From contig JAKQDP010000070.1 in the NCBI GenBank assembly GCA_029558735.1, forward strand, positions 42,700-106,699: 64,000 nt of DNA, in the 5' to 3' direction. The DNA comes from a bacterium (GTDB lineage: Bacteria > Patescibacteriota > Patescibacteriia > 2-01-FULL-39-33). Both the position numbers and the translations under genes were made by a program. Positions 4,794-63,319 of this stretch are shown one piece after another. Below the pieces are notes generated by a model. That model had not been told where the DNA came from. It did no database searches and saw only the letters and a program-made list of their open reading frames with translations. Each line of letters starts with the position of its first letter. Positions within the stretch are counted from its first letter, which is position 1.

Positions 4794-5901
4794 TCTTAGT
4801 TAATAAATTAAATATTTTCTGCTTGAATGTCTCCAGACTAAATTGTTGGGCGTATTCTTTGATTTGCATCGGATTATAGCGTTGGGGCTCAAAACGAATT
4901 ATCCGGTCAGCCAATTCCTCCCAAATCTGTTCATCAAAAAATTCTCCGCTTAAGCCCTCCTTAACTGTTTCAGTGGCGCCACCGGCGCGATAAGCAATAA
5001 CTGGCCGCCCCGAAGCCATGGCTTCAATCGCGGTAATACCAAAATCTTCTTCTTGAGGATTCAAATAAGCGATACAATTGGCGAATAACTGTTTTTTGGT
5101 CGCATCGTCAATCTTGCCCAAAAATTGAACATTAGGTTTAGCCATTCTCTTCAAGATTTTAAGCTCCGGACCGATGCCAAACACTTTCAGTGGAATGCCC
5201 AACCGAGAAAATGCCCTGACCGCCAAATCAACTCGCTTATATGGCACCAGCCGGCCACCAGCCAAATAATATTTTTTAGGGTGGTTAGAAATAAAAAACT
5301 CCTCCACCGCCACCGGCGGATAAATCACCTCGCTGTTGCGGTTATAATATTTTTTAATTCGATTTTTGACTGTCTGAGAATTGGCCACAAAGTAATCCAC
5401 CCGATCAGCCGCCAACCGGTCCCATTGTCGCAGTTTTCTTAAAGTAAGCGGTAATATCAATTTAATCACCGAATTAACCCGCAACTCTTTGATATAAAAA
5501 TAGGTATCCATCCAAAGAAATCTGGTTGGCGTATGGCAGTAACAAATATGAACACTGTCCGGCCTGGTAATCACTCCTTTGGCGAAAGAAGAGGCGCTGG
5601 AAATAACCACATCATAATCCATCAGATTATAATTTTCCGTTGCTAAGGGCATCAATGACAAATACCACTGGTATTTGGAAACTCCCAAAGGAATATTCTG
5701 TAAAAAAGAAGTTCGAACATCCTGATCGTGGAAAAAATTATTGGTTCGTCTTCGGTCAAAAATCAAAGTAAAAATTGGCGCCTGGGGAAAGAATTCTTTA
5801 AGCACCTTAACGACCTGCTCAGCTCCGCCATCTTGAGCTAAGTGATCATGAACTAAAGCAATCTTTAATCGACCGCTCGGGGTGAAATTAGAACTGGTCA
5901 T
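4750..5901 (-). CDS. Glycosyltransferase, family 1
   Basis: GT1 motif EEDFGITAIEAMASGRPVIAYRAGGATETV. Confidence 0.8.
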   Translation of the reverse strand: MTSSNFTPSGRLKIALVHDHLAQDGGAEQVVKVLKEFFPQAPIFTLIFDRRRTNNFFHDQDVRTSFLQNIPLGVSKYQWYLSLMPLATENYNLMDYDVVISSASSFAKGVITRPDSVHICYCHTPTRFLWMDTYFYIKELRVNSVIKLILPLTLRKLRQWDRLAADRVDYFVANSQTVKNRIKKYYNRNSEVIYPPVAVEEFFISNHPKKYYLAGGRLVPYKRVDLAVRAFSRLGIPLKVFGIGPELKILKRMAKPNVQFLGKIDDATKKQLFANCIAYLNPQEEDFGITAIEAMASGRPVIAYRAGGATETVKEGLSGEFFDEQIWEELADRIIRFEPQRYNPMQIKEYAQQFSLETFKQKIFNLLTKIGDENRGRHPVIDG

Positions 5902-5981: not shown

Positions 5982-6161
5982 TTATCTGATTATTTCCAAC
6001 CAGAAAATCGGCCAACACAGACAAACCAGCGCTAAACTGGCCAGTACTGTTCTTCTTCTGACAACGCTCGGATTCTGATGATAAGCGATTGTCAGCAAAT
6101 AAACAAACAAGCTACCGCCCACAGCTAAATAAAATCCCAATAACAGCCAAATCCATAACAT
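5982..6161 (-). CDS. Small hydrophobic membrane protein, 59 aa (MLWIWLLLGFYLAVGGSLFVYLLTIAYHQNPSVVRRRTVLASLALVCLCWPIFWLEIIR)
   Basis: Strong RBS (aaaGGAGGgtaaaaaATG) and two predicted TM helices. Lies between the GT gene and the priming transferase and is below the ORF-track size cutoff. Confidence 0.3.
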   Translation of the reverse strand: MLWIWLLLGFYLAVGGSLFVYLLTIAYHQNPSVVRRRTVLASLALVCLCWPIFWLEIIR

Positions 6162-7699: not shown

Positions 7700-8110
7700 G
7701 TCCAAACAAGCTGGATGACTGCTCGGTTTTAGCTTTAAACGCTTTGACCGGGAGGAAAGTCCGAACACTCTTTCCGTTTTTTTTTCGGAATGTCGTGGTA
7801 GTGGCTAACGGCCACCCAGGTCGTCGCAAGGCGGTCTGAGGACTAGTTCCACAGAGACAATACTATCCCGAGCAATCGGGACAAATGTGAAAAGTGTGAA
7901 GGTGTTTTAAATTGGGCTAGAGATATCTCCTCAACTTAAAGCTACTTCACTCGGCCTCTGGCGACAGAGTGCCCGTGGTAAACTCTACCTAGTGCAACCC
8001 CAAATCTAGTCGGGGGCTCGAGCTGGCCAGTAATGACCAGCCCAGATAGATAGTCATCGCTCTGATTATTGTCAGAGTACAGAATTCGGCTTATAGGCTT
8101 GTTTGGACCA
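7700..8110 (+). ncRNA. rnpB: RNase P RNA (bacterial type A-like)
   Basis: Conserved P4 5' strand GGAGGAAAGTCCG at ~7751-7763. GGTAAACTCtACC motif at ~7975. Conserved 3' element ACAGAAttCGGCTTATaGG at 8079-8097. P1 pairing: ccaaacaagc at 7703-7712 pairs with gcttgtttgg at 8096-8105. The 61-aa ORF at 7942-8127 on the opposite strand is spurious. Confidence 0.8.
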
Positions 8111-30931: not shown

Positions 30932-31447
30932 TTATTTGATATTAATCGGATTGTTTTTGTCTTTATCCCACATCCTTGGATTATATTTTATATAATACCT
31001 GATTTTGTCCAAAGATTCAGCATTGGTTCTTATAACATGGTCATAAAACCTGGATTGCCAAGAAAAATTTTTATGGCCGGCAAGATGAATTTTCCTAGTA
31101 CAAGCTGATTTAAATGATCCAACAATATTGGATAATGAACTGGTTTTGCCTTGTTCCGTAGAGACGGGGCATGCCCCGTCTCTACCCGCATTATCAGAAT
31201 TATTATTAATTTCAATTATAAAATGAATATGATTTGGCATCACAATGAATTCATCCAAAACACAATCAGAATAATGTTTTGAGAGTTCTTGCCAATATTT
31301 GTAACAAATACAACCTAATTTATTCAATCCCATTATCCCATTTTTCACCCTGCCCAAACAGCATTTTCTGTCTTTGACGCATATGGTAATAAAATACAAA
31401 CCCGGACTGGAATAATCATAAACATGCCACCGCGCTGAATTGACCAA
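30932..31447 (-). CDS. REP-associated tyrosine transposase (RAYT / TnpA_REP, IS200-IS605-like Y1 HuH transposase)
   Basis: HuH motif MPNHIHFII. SACT...RFYDHVIR...IRYYIKYNP matches the E. coli RAYT architecture (HAC...RFWEHAIR...YIYINP), including the catalytic Tyr region. 171 aa. Confidence 0.7.
   Translation of the reverse strand: MVNSARWHVYDYSSPGLYFITICVKDRKCCLGRVKNGIMGLNKLGCICYKYWQELSKHYSDCVLDEFIVMPNHIHFIIEINNNSDNAGRDGACPVSTEQGKTSSLSNIVGSFKSACTRKIHLAGHKNFSWQSRFYDHVIRTNAESLDKIRYYIKYNPRMWDKDKNNPINIK
31158..31185. repeat. Perfect 28-bp palindrome embedded in-frame in the RAYT gene
   Basis: gtagagacggggcatgccccgtctctac is its own reverse complement and encodes GRDGACPVS. Confidence 0.6.
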
Positions 31448-31963: not shown

Positions 31964-34525
31964 CTATAAATATTTTTTAAGGTACTGACCGGTAATGCTT
32001 TTCTCATCCCGAGCGACTTCCTCGGGCAAGCCCTTGGCTATCACTCGACCGCCGCCCGCTCCGCCATCCGGGCCCAAATCAATAAGCCAATCAGCAGATT
32101 TAATAATATGCATATTATGCTCAATTATCGCAATGCTGTTACCCCGCTCAATCAATTTATTCAATACTTCCAACAACAATTGGATATCATAATAATGCAA
32201 GCCGACTGTCGGTTCATCCAAAAGATAGAGAGTCTTTTTGCCCAGAGTATGTGTTAGTTCCCGAGCCAGCTTGATTCTTTGCGCTTCGCCGCCCGATAAC
32301 GTGGTGGCGCTTTGGCCCAACTGCAAATAGCCCAAACCGACCTCCTCTAATACTTTCAATTTGTCGGTAATTTGGTATTGGCCGTCAAAATAATTAAGCG
32401 CCTCATCAATGGTCAATTCCAGCACTTCGGCAATATTTTTATTTTTGTACTTGACCTGCAAAGTTTCTCGATTGAAGCGCCGGCCGTGGCACACTTCGCA
32501 TTCCACATAAACCGGCGGCAAAAAATGCATCTCAATTAGATTAAAGCCAGCGCCGGCGCAGGCCTCGCACCGCCCGCCGGCGCGATTGAAAGAAAAACGC
32601 GATAACGTGTAAGCCCGCTCCCGCGATTGGGGCAACTGGGCGAAAAACTCGCGAATCGGCATAAAGATGCCGGTATAAGTGGCGGGGTTGGAACGCGGGC
32701 TGCGGCCAATCGGCGACTGATCCACTACTACCGCCCGATTAATATACTCACTACCGACAATCTTGCTGACATTTTCCAGCTCCTGTCGATGGCCGCTCTT
32801 GATTTTGACCAAATTGCGATAAAGAACATCATACAATAAAGTTGATTTGCCACTGCCGGACACGCCGGTGACGCAAACCAATTTCCGAAGCGGAATCTCC
32901 ACCTGAATATTTTTCAAATTATTAGCTCTGGCGCCGATAATCTTAATCATTTCGCTATCCTTCATTCGTCGGTGGGGAAAATTGATTTCCTTTTTGCCCC
33001 GCAAATAATCCAGTGTCAATGAATCTGCCGGGCTGTTTTTACTAAGCAATTTGTTGACTTCCCCTTGCGCCACCACTTCCCCACCCTGCCGACCGGCCAA
33101 CGGTCCCAAGTCCACCAAATAATCTGACTCCCTGATCACTCGCTCATCATGCTCGACAATAATCACGCTGTTATTTTGATCCCGAAGCGATTTTAAGGTG
33201 TCAATCAATTTTTCGTTATCCCGCTCGTGGAGACCGATAGTCGGCTCATCAAGAATATAAAGCGTATGCGACAGATGCGAGCCGATTTGCGAGGACAGCC
33301 TGATGCGCTGGGCCTCGCCGCCCGATAATGTCTCGGCTTCGCGGTCCAGCGACAAATAATTCAAGCCGACCTGAAGCAGGAAAAACAGCCGATCGCTCAC
33401 TTCTTGGATGATATCGCCGGCGATTTCCTGATTGCGCTTGCTGATTTTTTTACGGTAATCTTCAAAAAAATCATACAATTTGTCTATCGCTAAGGCGCTG
33501 ATTTGGGCGATATTTTTATCCAGTATCTTGATCGCCAATGTTTCCGGCCGCAACCGCTGGCCGGCGCAGGCCAAACATGGTTTAGTCACTCGCTCATACC
33601 GATTGGCCACCTCCCCCACCTCCCCGTCTTTAACGGCTATTTTCTTTTTTTCCCAGGATTCCAATCGGCCCAAGCCAGAACATTGAGGACAAGCGCCATG
33701 CGGACTGTTAAACGAAAACAACCGCGGTTCAACTTCGGGAAAAGCAAAATTATCATAAGGGCAAGTCCAATTGGCCGACAATAACATTTCTTGCTGGTCC
33801 TGACCGTCGCCAAGCACTACCACCACCAAGCCATTACTGTGTTGCAAGGACGCTTCAATTGCCTCCGCCAGCCGGCTCAGATCATCCGGCATCACCTTAT
33901 CGATCACAATGTCAATATTATGCTTTTTATACCGAGCCAGCTTAATCTGTTCGTGCAGGGAATGGACTTCGCCGTCTATTCTGGCCTCGCCATAACCCAA
34001 GGCCAAATAATCATACAACAACTGATAATATTCACCCTTGCGGTCAATAACTACCGGGGCCAAAATAGTCGCGGCTCTAATCGCCAACTCTTTCATCTTA
34101 TCGTTGACAATATCCACCATCTCATCCAAGGCAAGCTTCTTAATTTTGCGGCCGCATTGAGGACAAAACACCTCCCCCACTCGGGCATACAGCACTCGCA
34201 GATAATCGTATATCTCGGTCAAAGTGCCGACTGTCGAACGCGGATTGTGCGACAGGGCTTTCTGGTCAATAGCAATGGACGGCGCCAAACCGACAATTTC
34301 ATCCACGTCCGCCGGCTTCATTTGACCCAAAAATTGCCGGGCATACGGCGACAAGGACTCAATATAACGCCTTTGGCCCTCGGCAAAAATAGTATCAAAA
34401 GCCAAAGAAGACTTACCGCTGCCGGACAAACCAGTAAACACCACCAGTTTGTTGTGTGGTATTTCCAGATTGACATTTTTTAAATTATGGACCCGTGCTC
34501 CGCGAATAATTATTTTATCTGGCAT
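31964..34525 (-). CDS. uvrA: Excinuclease ABC subunit A
   Basis: Two ABC ATPase halves ([16 protein letters not shown]; [10 protein letters not shown]), zinc-finger Cys clusters and LSGGEAQR signatures. 853 aa. Confidence 0.9.
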
Positions 34526-34705
34526 AAAGTTTTTGTTTTTAAAAATATTTTAACTGACTAATTATTGTCTATTGCTGTTTTTAAGTCTTGTTCTTGAGCG
34601 ACTAAATCCGATCAGACCAACGCCAGTTTGACAAACACACTCTTTCCCTGCTAATCTTAGTTAGTTGTTTTATTGTTTCCCCCCAACAAAAGGAAGGTAA
34701 CATCA

Positions 34706-34879
34706 ATGGAAACCGGTGAACAGCTGTTATTGCCTTTGGTTGAGACGACCGTAATCGCCGAGAACCCCAATCAACTGACATTGTTCTTTGAGACCCCCTG
34801 CCAGTGTCGGCCGGGCCAAGCCTGTTCCACTGGTCATACTTATCAAGAGTGCGACCAGGACTGCGGCCTGGGAGCATAA
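34706..34879 (+). CDS. Candidate small Cys-rich peptide, 57 aa (METGEQLLLPLVETTVIAENPNQLTLFFETPCQCRPGQACSTGHTYQECDQDCGLGA)
   Basis: Strong RBS (aaAGGAAGGtaacatcaATG) and a terminator hairpin at 34893-34924. Sits between uvrA and uvrB on the opposite strand, with an acidic N-terminal half and six Cys in the C-terminal 26 aa. An alternative 91-aa ORF on the other strand lacks such signals. Confidence 0.35.
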   Translation: METGEQLLLPLVETTVIAENPNQLTLFFETPCQCRPGQACSTGHTYQECDQDCGLGA

Positions 34880-34892
34880 GACGCCTCTTGAT

Positions 34893-34924
34893 CGGCGACG
34901 GCCTAACAGCTGTCGCTTTTTTTA
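34893..34924 (+). terminator. Intrinsic terminator following the small Cys-rich ORF
   Basis: gcgacgg-cctaaca-gctgtcgc followed by ttttttt. Confidence 0.4.
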
Positions 34925-36808
34925 TTTGGAATTTTTTGGAGACCGAAAAGTCGCTTTGGTTTTTTCGCCTGGCTCTTTTTCAATGTCCAAAAAATCTTCA
35001 ATGTCTTTTTTAATTGTCTGCGGCGTAATGCCGTGTTTTTTATTGTATTCCCTCTGCCGTATCCGCCGCCGCTCCACTTCTTTGAGCGCCCGCTTCATTG
35101 AGCCGGTGATATTATCAGCGTACAAAATCACCTGACCGGTCACATTCCTGGCCGCCCGACCCATGGTCTGCATCAGAGATGTCTCACTGCGCAAAAATCC
35201 TTCCCGGTCCGCGTCCAATATAACCACCAAAGTCACCTCCGGCAAATCCAGACCCTCCCTAAGCAAATTAACGCCGATTAAAATATCAAACCGACCCTTC
35301 CTAAAATTCATCAATATCTCGGTACGCTGAATAGTTTTAATATCGCTGTGAATGTAATCGACTTTGAAGCCTTTTTTGCGCAAATAGCTGTCCAGATCCT
35401 CGGCCATTTTTTTGGTCAAAGTATTGACAATCGCCCTTTCCTTTTTTTCCGCTATTACTGTTAATTCCTTGATTAAATCATCAATTTGGCTGTAATTATT
35501 TTTTTGGTCAAACACCGGCCGGACTGTTACCGGCGGATCAATCAACCCGGTCGGCCGAATCACCTGCTCAACAACTTGCCGAGACATTGCCATTTCCCAT
35601 TTGCCCGGCGTCGCAGTGGTAAAAATCACCTGGCCGATTCGATCCTGAAACTCCTGAAAATTAAGGGGTCGATTGTCAATAGCCGAGGGCAGACGCCAAC
35701 CATATTGGACCAAAATTTTCTTGCGCGCCTGATCGCCCTCATACATCCCCCGAATTTGGGGCACGGCAACATGCGACTCGTCAATAATAGTCAAAAAATC
35801 CGACCGGCCGGCCTGGTCTTTCGGAAAATAAGCCAATAAACTGTCTGGCGCCTCACCTGGCAATTTGCCTACCAAGTGGCGAGAATAATTTTCAATGCCA
35901 TGGCAATAACCCAAGGACAACAACATCTCAATATCATATCTAGTCCGTCGTTCCAGCCGTTCCGCCTCCAAATAAAATCCCTTGGACTGAAAATATTTCA
36001 GCCGATCCTTCAGTTCCGTCTTAATGCTTTTGACTGCTTCCTTGATTTCCGGCATCGAAGAAACAAAATGTTTGGGAGGAAAAATAATTATTTCTGTCAA
36101 TGACTCTTTTATTTTTCTGGTCAACTGATCAACTATGGCCAAACCGGAAACTTGCTGCTCCGACAGCTCTAGCCGATAAATGATATTTTCCGCCGCCGGC
36201 ATAATTTCAAACACATCGCCCCGGACCCGAAATGATCCCCGCTTCAACTCGCCCGGCGTCCGTTCAAACTGAATTCTGACCAATTGCTTGATTAAATCTT
36301 GCCGGACAATCGTCTGACCGATTTTCAGATGCAACCGGGCAGCGGTATAGCTGGCCGGCAAGCCCAAATTGTAAATACAGGACACCGAAGCGACAATAAT
36401 CACATCGCGACGACTAGCCAAAGCGCTAGTCGCCTGATGTCGCAACCGATCAATTTCATCATTGATCATTGCTTCTTTTTCTATATAGGTGTCAGTGGAG
36501 GGCAGATAGGCTTCCGGTTGATAATAATCATAATAAGACACGAAATAGTTAACGCTATTTTGGGGGAAAAAATTCTTGTATTCACGATACAGCTGAGCAG
36601 CCAAAGCCTTGTTGGGCGCCACGACCAAAACCGGCCGATTAATCTTTTCGATAATATTGGCCATCGTAAAAGTCTTGCCCGAACCAGTCACACCGACTAA
36701 TGTCTGGTACTGGTCGCCCCGACTCAAACCGGCAGATAATTTGGCAATTGCCTGCGGCTGATCGCCGGCCGGAGCAAATTTTGATTGTAAGTGGAATAAT
36801 TTAGACAT
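34922..36808 (-). CDS. uvrB: Excinuclease ABC subunit B
   Basis: N-terminal QPQAI, helicase motifs GVTGSGKTFTMANI, a beta-hairpin region and a C-terminal UvrB/UvrC interaction domain. 628 aa. Confidence 0.9.
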   Translation of the reverse strand: MSKLFHLQSKFAPAGDQPQAIAKLSAGLSRGDQYQTLVGVTGSGKTFTMANIIEKINRPVLVVAPNKALAAQLYREYKNFFPQNSVNYFVSYYDYYQPEAYLPSTDTYIEKEAMINDEIDRLRHQATSALASRRDVIIVASVSCIYNLGLPASYTAARLHLKIGQTIVRQDLIKQLVRIQFERTPGELKRGSFRVRGDVFEIMPAAENIIYRLELSEQQVSGLAIVDQLTRKIKESLTEIIIFPPKHFVSSMPEIKEAVKSIKTELKDRLKYFQSKGFYLEAERLERRTRYDIEMLLSLGYCHGIENYSRHLVGKLPGEAPDSLLAYFPKDQAGRSDFLTIIDESHVAVPQIRGMYEGDQARKKILVQYGWRLPSAIDNRPLNFQEFQDRIGQVIFTTATPGKWEMAMSRQVVEQVIRPTGLIDPPVTVRPVFDQKNNYSQIDDLIKELTVIAEKKERAIVNTLTKKMAEDLDSYLRKKGFKVDYIHSDIKTIQRTEILMNFRKGRFDILIGVNLLREGLDLPEVTLVVILDADREGFLRSETSLMQTMGRAARNVTGQVILYADNITGSMKRALKEVERRRIRQREYNKKHGITPQTIKKDIEDFLDIEKEPGEKTKATFRSPKNSK

Positions 36809-36839
36809 GGCAAAATTGCTATATTGTTATATTGTTTTT

Positions 36840-36863
36840 ATGTATATACATATCTATATACAT
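36840..36863. promoter_or_regulatory. Candidate operator upstream of uvrB: perfect 12-bp palindrome ATGTATATACAT followed by a near-copy ATCTATATACAT
   Basis: Located 32-55 nt upstream of the uvrB start codon, within its promoter region. Confidence 0.3.
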
Positions 36864-37148
36864 AATAAAATATAAATTGCAAATCACGGCTGCCTGCCAA
36901 TAAACAGGGATGATGAATAAATCTTCAAAAGTTTAGCAACCAATTTTAAATTATAAGTTTCAAATTTCAATTTAATTTTAAATAATAAAATATCAAATAA
37001 TCGACATCCATCTTCGGTAAAAAAATGAAATTTTAGATTAAATTTTAAAACTTGAAATTTGAAATTTTGGATTTAATATTTTAAACAAAATACCCAAATT
37101 CACCCCCGATCCATCCACTCTGGGGGGTTGAAAAAATTATTAGTTGGG

Positions 37149-37222
<74 letters not shown>

Positions 37223-37274
37223 CTACACCGACGATGAACATACCAGTGAACATACCAAAAAAATAAAGCTCCTG

Positions 37275-37348
37275 TGGACTCGAGGGGAGTCGAACCCCTG
37301 GCCTCGGCAATGCGAATGCCGCGCTCTAGCCAACTGAGCTACGAGCCC
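37275..37348 (-). tRNA. tRNA-Ala (anticodon CGC)
   Basis: Acceptor GGGCTCG/CGAGTCC with the G3:U70 Ala identity pair. Anticodon loop TTCGCAT. T-arm AGGGG-TTCGACT-CCCCT. Confidence 0.8.
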
Positions 37349-41604: not shown

Positions 41605-41684
41605 GAATCCTAACTCTCATTAAATAATTTAAATAGACACCTTTTGGGTGCCTATTTAAATTATCAAACTGCGGGACTAGGATT
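41605..41684. repeat. 80-bp direct repeat, copy 2; overlaps the genuine 3' end of tRNA-Gln
   Basis: Identical to copy 1. Period 218 bp. Confidence 0.7.
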
Positions 41685-41739
41685 CGAACCTAGGCTACCT
41701 GGGCCAGAACCAGGCGTCCTACCACTAGACTATCCCGCA
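41669..41739 (-). tRNA. tRNA-Gln (anticodon CTG)
   Basis: Acceptor TGCGGGA/TCCCGCA with U1-A72 and discriminator G (Gln identity). Anticodon stem-loop CCTGG-TTCTGGC-CCAGG. T-arm CTAGG-TTCGAAT-CCTAG. Confidence 0.75.
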
Positions 41740-43553: not shown

Positions 43554-43852
43554 TTGTCAGGGCGGCCTTTAATTTTACTTATAACGGCGACTTTTTTTAA
43601 TTGGTCGGCTATGACGACGCCAAACCGATTCCCGAGTGCCTAAATTAGTTCCGGCCAAAAAAAGCCAGTAACCAGTCAGAGAGCCGGCTGTCTGACCTGC
43701 CACTAAGGGGCTTTTTCTCCTTTCCACCAAATGCCTCCCGGGCTCAATCAGTTGAGAAGACCAGTCATTTGAGGTGTCTATCAATTCCAGAGCTGACCAA
43801 ATTCTGACAACCATCATCCTGACTCCTTTCTCTGTTTTAATGATAATCGATT

Positions 43853-43955: not shown

Positions 43956-44192
43956 CTACCTCCTACCGTTCTCTGAATGCTCCTCCCAAGTTACCACGCT
44001 TGTTCCGTAATCTCGACCGTCAATTGTCGTCTTGAGCCACTTTGCCCCAAAACCATTAATGGGGTTGTTGATTTCCTGCACCGAATACCAGCCTGGGTTG
44101 ATGATTAGGAATTCCCATGGTTGGGAGCCCAATCGAACAACGGGCATCGGCCTAATAATCTTCTTATTTATCATCGTTAACTCCTTAGCCAC
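43956..44192 (-). CDS. Hypothetical small protein, 78 aa
   Basis: ORF with its own downstream terminator, immediately 3' of the ATPase gene. No recognisable motif. Confidence 0.4.
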   Translation of the reverse strand: MAKELTMINKKIIRPMPVVRLGSQPWEFLIINPGWYSVQEINNPINGFGAKWLKTTIDGRDYGTSVVTWEEHSENGRR

Positions 44193-48410: not shown

Positions 48411-49175
48411 TTAAAGCGGGGTCGCGCTCGAACGCCGCCGGCGCCATTTCAGTACCAAATACCAGGGCGGCGGCGGCGCGGTAATTGTCGCCTCTAATTG
48501 ATGGCACAATGCCTCAGACTCACCAATTTCATCTTCAATTTCCCGCATCTCTGTTTGGAGACGCTCAATTTCGCGCCGCCGAGTTAACAGCTCAACGGCT
48601 TTTTTTAACCGTTCAGCCAAATAAACTCTCGACTGGCCGACACCCTCGATTAATTCCTGAACATACTCGTCCGATCCGGTATTAACCAGTTGATTAGCTA
48701 AGCGCTCAAATAAGTCATAATGGACATACTCATAGCCGGCGTTAATCCGTTCCCACTTGATGCGCAAAAATTCGGCCAGTATCCGACCAAGAAAATCGGC
48801 CGGCAAAAACTTAAAAAGCTTGGGCGTAATTTGAAAATCAGCGACCGACCAGACAAAGAACGGCTGGTCGCCAAACTGGCACAAATAATAAATTATCTCC
48901 GAGTCTTCCAATTTGATAATCTGCGTGAACGTCCGCCTTAATTGTCGGCGCTGAATCTTTTCCAGCCAAAAACAAAAGCCGGAAAAACCGATAAACACCG
49001 CCAACACGGCTATGACGCCGATAAACGGCAGCATTCCGCCAAGGGTCGGTTCGCGACCGGTGGTTTGGGAAAAGGCTAAATAATGATAGAACAGCCAACA
49101 AACACCCACTAGCAATGAAGTGGCTGCTCCGCCGACAAAACCGTTTGTCAAGGAACTGAGTTGTTTCAGGGACAT
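48411..49175 (-). CDS. Hypothetical membrane protein (3 TM N-terminal, coiled-coil, Pro/Arg-rich C-terminus)
   Basis: ORF only. No recognisable domain. Confidence 0.45.
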   Translation of the reverse strand: MSLKQLSSLTNGFVGGAATSLLVGVCWLFYHYLAFSQTTGREPTLGGMLPFIGVIAVLAVFIGFSGFCFWLEKIQRRQLRRTFTQIIKLEDSEIIYYLCQFGDQPFFVWSVADFQITPKLFKFLPADFLGRILAEFLRIKWERINAGYEYVHYDLFERLANQLVNTGSDEYVQELIEGVGQSRVYLAERLKKAVELLTRRREIERLQTEMREIEDEIGESEALCHQLEATITAPPPPWYLVLKWRRRRSSATPL

Positions 49176-50728: not shown

Positions 50729-50926
50729 ATGGCTAAATCAGAAGAGCAGAAGCAGAGGGAAGAGGAGAGGAAGTACAATGAAGGTTACGAGTCCGCCGTC
50801 AAAGATGGAGGCAGTATGAGTATCGGCGCCTCGATCATGGCTCCCATGTCTGACAGTTGGTGGAAGGGTCGCGAAGACGCCAAGCACGACATTCAGAAGG
50901 GAAAGGCGGAGCGCGGCGAGAAGTAA
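50729..50926 (+). CDS. Small charged hypothetical protein, 65 aa
   Basis: RBS AGGAG 8 nt upstream. Strong promoter ~65 nt upstream. A terminator follows. Confidence 0.5.
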   Translation: MAKSEEQKQREEERKYNEGYESAVKDGGSMSIGASIMAPMSDSWWKGREDAKHDIQKGKAERGEK

Positions 50927-63189: not shown

Positions 63190-63312
63190 TTTTATAAATA
63201 AATTAATAAAAAAATCCGCGTTGCCGCAGACGATAATCGCTTAATTTAAGCTTTTTTCCTCGGCAGGTCTTATTGACGACGCCTGCTGTCTGCGGAATTT
63301 AATTTAGGTTGA
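63190..63312 (-). promoter_or_regulatory. Structured 5' leader of rplJ (candidate L10 autoregulatory leader)
   Basis: Long-range pairing ccgcagac...gtctgcgg enclosing ~60 nt, lying between the promoter and the rplJ start. Confidence 0.35.
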
Positions 63313-63319
63313 TGCGTTT

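Follow-up and report, generated by a model that had tools for sequence, protein, structure and literature searches.

The spacer between the uvrB and uvrA genes of an uncultured Patescibacterium holds a 57-codon open reading frame (ORF) that is very probably a real gene, putatively expressed. It lies in a window of 64,000 nucleotides (contig JAKQDP010000070.1, positions 42,700 to 106,699 of the forward strand), the whole stretch of DNA analysed here, to which coordinates refer unless a relative's contig is named. To judge from its sequence and from its relatives, it is probably a lineage-restricted, previously uncharacterised small Cys/His gene, of the general kind of small Cys-rich, putative metal-binding micro-proteins. 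We lean slightly towards the combined reading of a real small gene whose product would carry a cytoplasmic Cys/His metal site, probably for zinc. The locus comprises the following features:

34628..34657, plus strand: promoter-like site of the small gene, with a -35 TTGACA (34628-34633), an 18-nt spacer with TG at 34649-34650, and a -10 TAATCT (34652-34657)
34690..34697, plus strand: Shine-Dalgarno (SD) sequence AAGGAAGG, 8 nt upstream of the ATG
34706..34879, plus strand: small protein gene, annotated 'hypothetical protein' in public metagenome-assembled genomes (PK619_00610; HNS33706.1 and others)
34793..34876, plus strand: conserved Cys/His module, residues 30-57, TPCQCRPGQACSTGHTYQECDQDCGLGA
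34894..34927, plus strand: intrinsic terminator, 9-bp stem (34894-34902 / 34909-34917) with loop CTAACA, then the T-run TTTTTTATTT
34571-34542, minus strand: weak sigma-70-like match for uvrA, TAGACA-16/18-AATATT/TATTTT, 9/12 matches
31964..34525, minus strand: uvrA (Pfam UvrA_inter and ABC_tran), divergent from the small gene
34922..36808, minus strand: uvrB (Pfam UvrB_inter, UvrB and Helicase_C), convergent with the small gene

The spacer (34526-34921) is 396 nt long, and the small gene is antisense to both of its neighbours; a gene resembling a REP-associated tyrosine transposase (RAYT) and uvrC are found further downstream of uvrA. The ORF consists of 57 codons plus a stop codon and translates as METGEQLLLPLVETTVIAENPNQLTLFFETPCQCRPGQACSTGHTYQECDQDCGLGA. 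A preliminary description of this DNA had placed a 57-residue, Cys-rich ORF with a good SD and its own plus-strand terminator on the strand opposite uvrA and uvrB, and this is borne out by the translation, by the SD at 34690-34697, by the hairpin at 34894-34917 with its T-run, and by the Pfam identity of the flanking genes. The N-terminal half is acidic, as described (five Glu and no basic residue among the first 29 residues), but the protein has five Cys (C32, C34, C40, C49 and C53) rather than the six that had been counted. The T-run of the terminator overlaps the uvrB stop codon (34922-34924). The promoter was read by eye from the sequence, with a transcript start expected at about 34664, and fell below the threshold of the scan tool because its -10 has only 3/6 matches. 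It stands back to back with the promoter-like site of uvrA, a kind of match that is no commoner in this region than expected from shuffled sequence. With promoter, SD, 57 codons and terminator of its own, the small gene would be transcribed independently.

What sets this ORF apart from chance is its codon usage and its protein-level conservation across species, and the case for a real gene has three supports: codon usage, conservation in the closest relative (contig L079) and recurrence in a more distant one (L080). The codon-usage log-odds came from a training set of 30 long window genes, and the ORF was compared with gene segments of equal length. It scores +12.0 bits, to be set against 18.8 ± 8.3 for true genes and -8.4 ± 7.7 for spurious ORFs, only 2% of which attain 12 bits; the remaining five frames over the ORF all score negative. 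A 91-codon shadow ORF on the minus strand (34602-34877) was rejected, the three antisense frames being negative and the pattern of synonymous changes fitting the plus frame.

The exact protein is found on 22 contigs of one uncultured Patescibacterium species. In the strain contigs L001-L006, uvrA and the entire spacer are 100% identical and divergence is confined to a recombinant block beyond ~35700, so that these strains carry no information on constraint. Searched by tblastn with the peptide, 72 species-level GTDB relatives (fetched via UvrA, at most 80% identity) gave zero matches; closer relatives, including L079 and L080, were found via UvrA homologues in a large protein database, and their contigs were then fetched. 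In L079, the closest relative (UvrA 84% identical), the same spacer carries a two-gene unit on the strand opposite uvrB and uvrA, the second ORF of which, MAIMAIVSTILVILLGALVARAAIKHFFLGLDGEENEEEDEMTVEASDKMASATPCHCRPGQFCNCGHTPQECDGDCALGQKPPIKDPFIEKRFEKTT, has the same slot and orientation as the window gene and contains TPCHCRPGQFCNCGHTPQECDGDCALGQ. The two modules share 20/27 residues (tblastn E 1e-9). The 28 codons compared comprise 7 identical ones, 13 with synonymous differences only and 8 with non-synonymous differences, which gives a proportion of synonymous differences (pS) of 0.89, i.e. saturated, and a proportion of non-synonymous differences (pN) of 0.22; identity is 11/28 at third positions and 21/28 at positions 1 and 2. 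Such synonymous divergence with conserved residues argues for selection on the protein, and not on the DNA or RNA. The preliminary description had raised the possibility that relatives would share the DNA and not the ORF; here it is the ORF that is conserved, as protein. The first gene of the L079 unit (5449-5727 of that contig, minus strand) encodes a 93-residue orphan protein (MAATPPKTPTELLEEEM...) preceding the Cys-module gene in the same operon; this protein matches no family, and the window lacks a homologue of it.

The L080 contig (UvrA 76% identical) has the ORF MTEQLEVPEAKNTPLPRRVCITGGICKHGHELPTECDGDCMLGADKLPQPVAGQPN in the same slot, with CITGGICKHGHELPTECDGDCMLGA as its module part. 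A non-circular profile, made from the window and L079 modules only, was run against 21,838 six-frame segments of distinct loci; the L080 ORF ranks third in this search, with an E value of 3.8e-5, and is regarded as a supported homologue. The fourth rank (E 0.41) is taken by an ORF of L029 (UvrA 73% identical), MPQVKVCPMGNNSRNECDGDCPLKDGW..., which follows a degenerate second copy (...CNCSRCPLGIDPRECDIPECYGL) in the same frame and is only a candidate homologue, helped by its shared slot and orientation. Homologous short ORFs in the uvrA-uvrB spacer of relatives, which the preliminary description had proposed to look for, are thus present in L079 and L080, with a candidate in L029.

The expression signals accompany the coding sequence. 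An intrinsic terminator stands directly 3' of the stop codon in 4/4 copies (window, L079, L080 and L029), and the three relatives have strong SDs of the GGAGG type 6-8 nt upstream of the ATG where the window gene has AAGGAAGG. Strong promoter-like sequences occur at the equivalent place in L079 (TTGACA-17-TAGCAT with an extended TG) and L029 (TTGACA-17-TATGCT, likewise with TG). A metagenome strain variant, L090 (protein P0126), differs from the window protein by T25I, T42N, G54S and G56E, along with three synonymous changes, and retains all Cys, the His and the ECDQDC segment; its terminator stem is kept, the one substitution there, G34900A, replacing a G.U pair by A-U. Comparison of the homologues shows purifying selection on the C-terminal ~25 residues, the N- and C-terminal extensions varying freely.

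The 8-nt palindrome ACAGCTGT occurs twice at the window locus, at 34720-34729 (ORF codons 5-8) and at 34904-34913 (loop and 3' arm of the terminator). Together they make up a perfect inverted repeat of 10 nt, which is paired in the predicted mRNA fold and is not conserved among the homologues.

The family is very small. Single-sequence and profile searches of a 5.8-billion-protein database returned only three family clusters, a metagenome scan had the L090 strain variant as its sole match, and a scan of viral contigs found zero members. Nothing credible was found in Pfam, NCBIfam, PHROGs, PADLOC or PDB at E values of up to 1 or 10, the two PHROG families listed (E 0.21 and 0.38) being matched by the relatives' proteins only. 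A HMMER search of 1.84 billion representatives reported two giant repeat adhesins (P0124, with 21 stretches, and P0125, with 5), which were rejected as homologues because their scores are sums of weak repeat matches. The automated Joint Genome Institute name of the L079 homologue, 'RcnA nickel/cobalt efflux permease component', was given no weight, the protein having no Pfam or NCBIfam match; our guess is that the label derives from its acidic low-complexity stretch. As far as these searches reach, the family is previously undescribed, and its known members all come from a few related Patescibacteria (Parcubacteria/Buchananbacteria-like metagenome-assembled genomes).

What the members have in common is a module of about 25 residues; the sequences on either side of it are unrelated. 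The window protein has an acidic N-terminus of 29 residues. In the L079 homologue, a helix of transmembrane grade (Kyte-Doolittle 19-residue mean 2.79) and an acidic linker precede the module and a C-terminal tail follows it; the L080 homologue has short tails on both sides, its N-terminus consisting of 17 unrelated residues. The window protein and both supported homologues fit the pattern C-x5-C-x3-H-x4/5-C-D-x-D-C-x-L, and the columns invariant in these three members are T30, P31, C34, G37, C40, G43, H44, E48, C49, D50, D52, C53, L55 and G56, of which G56 is replaced by Glu in the L090 strain variant. All members are acidic, with isoelectric points (pI) of 4.05-5.08, that of the window protein being 4.05. 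Neither a signal peptide nor a transmembrane segment was found in the window protein, and hydrophobic segments are lacking in the window, L080 and L029 proteins alike, whose Kyte-Doolittle 19-residue means never exceed 0.57.

Because four conserved Cys and one His fall within 20 residues of a protein placed in the reducing cytoplasm, a single structural metal ion suggests itself. C34, C40, H44, C49 and C53 would form one structural metal site, most likely for Zn(II), an Fe-S or redox-active site being a less likely alternative; around this site the chain would fold as a knuckle-like mini-domain, and the small protein would act by binding a partner, either protein or nucleic acid, in the cytoplasm. 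The chance that the conserved module does ligate metal seems to us about even. Of the two readings offered by the preliminary description, a small metal-binding protein or a precursor of a ribosomally synthesised and post-translationally modified peptide (RiPP), the former fits the conserved Cys and His and the general lack of export signals, and the latter fails on its testable features, which are taken up further below.

Several points weigh against a cytoplasmic metal-binding protein. The L079 homologue carries an N-terminal transmembrane helix, so at least one member would be membrane-attached. The argument for metal binding is one of residue pattern alone: an AlphaFold2 model computed on the three-sequence alignment is too poor for geometry (mean predicted local distance difference test score 54, predicted TM score 0.27), E values of up to 10 bring up neither a known zinc-finger family nor a solved structure, and the spacing C-x5-C-x3-H-x4-C-x3-C is not that of a canonical CxxC-type zinc site. 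Among archaeal micro-proteins with Cys motifs, moreover, several predicted zinc fingers bind no zinc, according to one report (PMC11241148). The L029 candidate is without the His and one of the Cys, and its similarity alone is not significant. Finally, the within-species changes in the ORF, 4 non-synonymous and 3 synonymous, suggest weak constraint outside the Cys/His positions.

Known small Cys proteins offer only partial parallels. Prokaryotic zinc-finger micro-proteins with one domain, such as the C(P)XCG proteins of Haloferax volcanii (PMC6562870, PMC10716476, PMC11241148), resemble the window protein in having fewer than 70 residues, a single Cys mini-domain and short variable tails, and in being encoded by stand-alone genes and presumed to bind partners. 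The window protein differs from them in that it has neither C(P)XCG nor CxxC pairs, shows no sequence similarity to them, has a bacterial host and carries a zinc site that is predicted only. The CCHC zinc knuckle, C-x2-C-x4-H-x4-C, has the same Cys-Cys-His-Cys order within ~16 residues and an identical H-x4-C, whereas the first spacings of the window module are x5 and x3 (instead of x2 and x4), a fifth Cys is conserved, and no Pfam match is obtained at E values of up to 10. Bacterial metallothioneins of the SmtA/BmtA type (PF02069) are similar in size to the window protein (~56 residues) and likewise have Cys and His as ligands. A 'GHT' element is presumably common to both as well. Unlike SmtA, the window protein has no Pfam match and no metal-resistance genes near its gene, and its Cys content (5 in 57 residues, 9%) compares with roughly double that in SmtA.

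The position of the gene raises the question of a link with DNA repair. Nucleotide excision repair might be modulated by the small acidic protein, through binding to UvrA or UvrB or through DNA mimicry, or by the transcript, through transcriptional interference. The transcript would be fully antisense to any read-through RNA from uvrB to uvrA, its promoter being back to back with that of uvrA, and antisense overlap is likely since uvrB has no minus-strand terminator after it. Three to four species share slot and orientation, in L080 only 69 nt separate the starts of the small gene and uvrA, and all members are strongly acidic. We nevertheless consider such a regulator unlikely. Most relatives in which uvrB and uvrA are arranged alike lack the small gene, and common descent fully explains the position shared by those that have it. 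A search for an operator shared by the four promoter regions returned only the SD and AT-rich words. No LexA box of the GAAC-N4-GTTC type, the only type searched for, occurs in 34526-34705 even with one mismatch; the sole 1-mismatch site of the spacer lies within the ORF, and the window-wide frequency of such sites is below chance. The SOS-type promoters that the preliminary description had assigned to uvrA are accordingly unsupported, the region upstream of uvrA offering a weak sigma-70-like match only. At the RNA level, neither strand of the spacer has an exceptional structure (folding z-scores of -2.07 and -1.43), and Rfam gives no credible match over the region (best E 0.7, far below gathering scores). 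Small damage-induced proteins of the DinI, YneA and SidA types are likewise encoded beside repair or SOS genes. The window gene is small and diverges from a DNA-repair gene, its product is acidic like DinI, and the L079 homologue is membrane-anchored like YneA/SidA; the window gene differs from all of these in having no LexA box, no sequence similarity to them and no transmembrane segment, and in being absent from most relatives with the same uvrB-uvrA arrangement.

The history of the slot bears on the same question. The UvrA tree pairs the window species with L079 as sisters and places L080 in the sister group together with L081 and L086, with L029 in a separate clade. The slot of L081 and L086, which belong to the same clade, is occupied by unrelated genes; in more distant relatives the uvrB-uvrA spacer is 6-64 nt long without a gene, and in others it is empty over ~300 nt or holds unrelated genes on the opposite strand. 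(The P0017 and P0011 relatives were left out, their contigs ending 52 and 123 nt upstream of uvrA.) The occupied spacers are, in coordinates of the respective contigs:

L081/L082 spacer, 5264-5764, opposite strand: protein with two transmembrane segments
L086 spacer, 1649-2894, opposite strand: four small genes, one of them HTH/XRE-like by eye
L087 spacer, 726-2922, opposite strand: sigma70_r4/SKI/GT2 genes
L089 spacer, ~2585-2797, opposite strand: hydrophobic 71-codon ORF

The simplest history would be that an insertion brought the gene into a variable intergenic slot before a small clade diversified, with later replacement in some lineages; the position beside repair genes is probably a matter of historical inheritance and is not to be taken as evidence of a repair function. 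The small gene does split a uvrB-uvrA pair that is plain (6-64-nt spacers) in other relatives. A bolder version of the repair link would make C-x5-C-x3-H-x4/5-E-C-D-x-D-C-x-L a novel Patescibacteria micro-domain that binds metal and whose gene is tied functionally to nucleotide excision repair. UvrA/UvrB could then be targets of the protein, or uvrA expression could be gated by the transcript; we think this improbable.

It is similarly doubtful that the module is an extracytoplasmic or membrane-surface mini-domain held together by two disulfides instead of a metal. The number of conserved Cys is even (four) and would permit two disulfides, and the L079 protein starts with the transmembrane-grade helix mentioned above. 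The proteins of the window, L080 and L029, however, have neither a signal peptide nor a hydrophobic segment, and the conserved His among the Cys suggests metal ligation. In L079 itself the positive residues R21 and K25 come after the helix, so that by the positive-inside rule the Cys module would be placed in the cytoplasm.

That the ORF is no functional gene at all, having arisen by chance or being left over from inserted DNA in decay, is very unlikely. Its length is unremarkable, since shuffling the 396-nt spacer yields an ATG ORF of at least 57 codons in 18% of cases, and ORF length alone therefore carries no weight; 4.3% of all ATGs in the window have an SD-like run of 5 nt or more upstream, and the SD taken alone is not decisive either. 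The tiny family (three clusters among 5.8 billion proteins) and the ratio of non-synonymous to synonymous changes within the species point the same way. Against this, amino acids are conserved between species despite saturated synonymous sites, the L080 homologue is significant independently, SD and terminator are retained in all copies, and gene-like codon usage is confined to a single frame.

The weakest alternative is the RiPP or bacteriocin precursor, in which a leader would be read by a maturase encoded elsewhere and the Cys core would be cross-linked (lanthionine, sactionine, ranthionine or disulfides) and exported; we give it hardly any credence, since the superficial leader-plus-core layout, with five Cys and Ser/Thr/Gly in the last 28 residues, has its conservation inverted, the 'core' being conserved and the 'leader' replaced outright in L079, L080 and L029. 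Ser41/Thr42 vary (N/C in L079, K/H in L080, and T42N within the species), there is no double-glycine, GG/GA-type or other cleavage motif, and NCBIfam (its precursor models, SCIFF included) and Pfam are blank at E values of up to 10. The immediate neighbours are uvrB and uvrA in all copies, and no maturase, protease or exporter adjoins any of the four, nor does a RiPP maturase, protease or exporter occur within ~6 kb of the L079 and L080 copies. Nearly all window ORFs of at least 120 residues between 2.5 and 57 kb were scanned; they are housekeeping, glycosyltransferase and type IV pilus genes, with no radical-SAM, LanB/C/M, YcaO, C39 peptidase or exporter gene among them, in keeping with the earlier remark that no modification enzymes are nearby. 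SCIFF/ranthipeptide and other Cys-rich RiPP precursors are, like the window protein, short peptides with Cys clustered C-terminally; the window protein differs in having no precursor-model match, no adjacent radical-SAM maturase gene and an unconserved leader. As judged from these comparisons, RiPP precursor identity is not supported, failing each testable feature.

A small protein with a Cys/His module, the reading we prefer, would, if the metal assignment is true, add one more short Cys/His micro-domain to those of bacterial small proteins, in a phylum whose small proteins are essentially unstudied. The overall finding is ordinary to mildly interesting. It points to neither a new natural product nor a new repair mechanism; it illustrates that a 57-codon ORF of an uncultured organism can feasibly be validated from sequence alone, and its practical value is modest, namely a defined 28-residue peptide that could be synthesised for a metal-binding assay.

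The start regions of 42 long ORFs of the window, and those of L079 and L080, show that SDs are almost absent from housekeeping genes. The sequences ahead of the start codons are AT-rich and often have a TATAAT-like box between a few and ~20 nt from the ATG, pointing to leaderless or short-leader mRNAs. It is mainly small orphan genes that have canonical SDs, in the window at 34706 (the gene described here), 50729-50926 (+), 43956-44174 (-), 43575-43817 (-), 5982-6161 (-) and 48411-49175 (-), and in the relatives at 8758-9147 of L079 and 11943-12119 of L080. The GC content at third codon positions of the small ORF is 0.61, compared with 0.47 for window genes (window GC 0.433), and its high GC together with the SD hints at foreign origin or special expression.

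Other observations concern the neighbouring genes. A RAYT/IS200-like Y1 gene lies between uvrA and uvrC in the window (30932-31447, minus strand), as it does in L086 (6028-6579; UvrA 76%); the window copy scores 57 bits with NCBIfam against a cut-off of 80 and may be a domesticated or decaying copy. UvrA has 853 residues in the window and 830-900 in related Patescibacteria, a typical bacterial UvrA having ~940. At ~35700-37300, the contigs L002, L005 and L090 carry a block that is ~20% divergent beside 100% identical DNA; it spans the 5' half of uvrB and the upstream tRNA region and constitutes a sharp recombination mosaic. The structured RNAs of the window are ordinary:

7703-8109 (+), 37147-37348 (-), 41669-41739 (-) and 63200-63313 (-): RNase P RNA class A, tRNA-Val(CAC), tRNA-Ala(CGC), tRNA-Gln(CTG) and L10 leader

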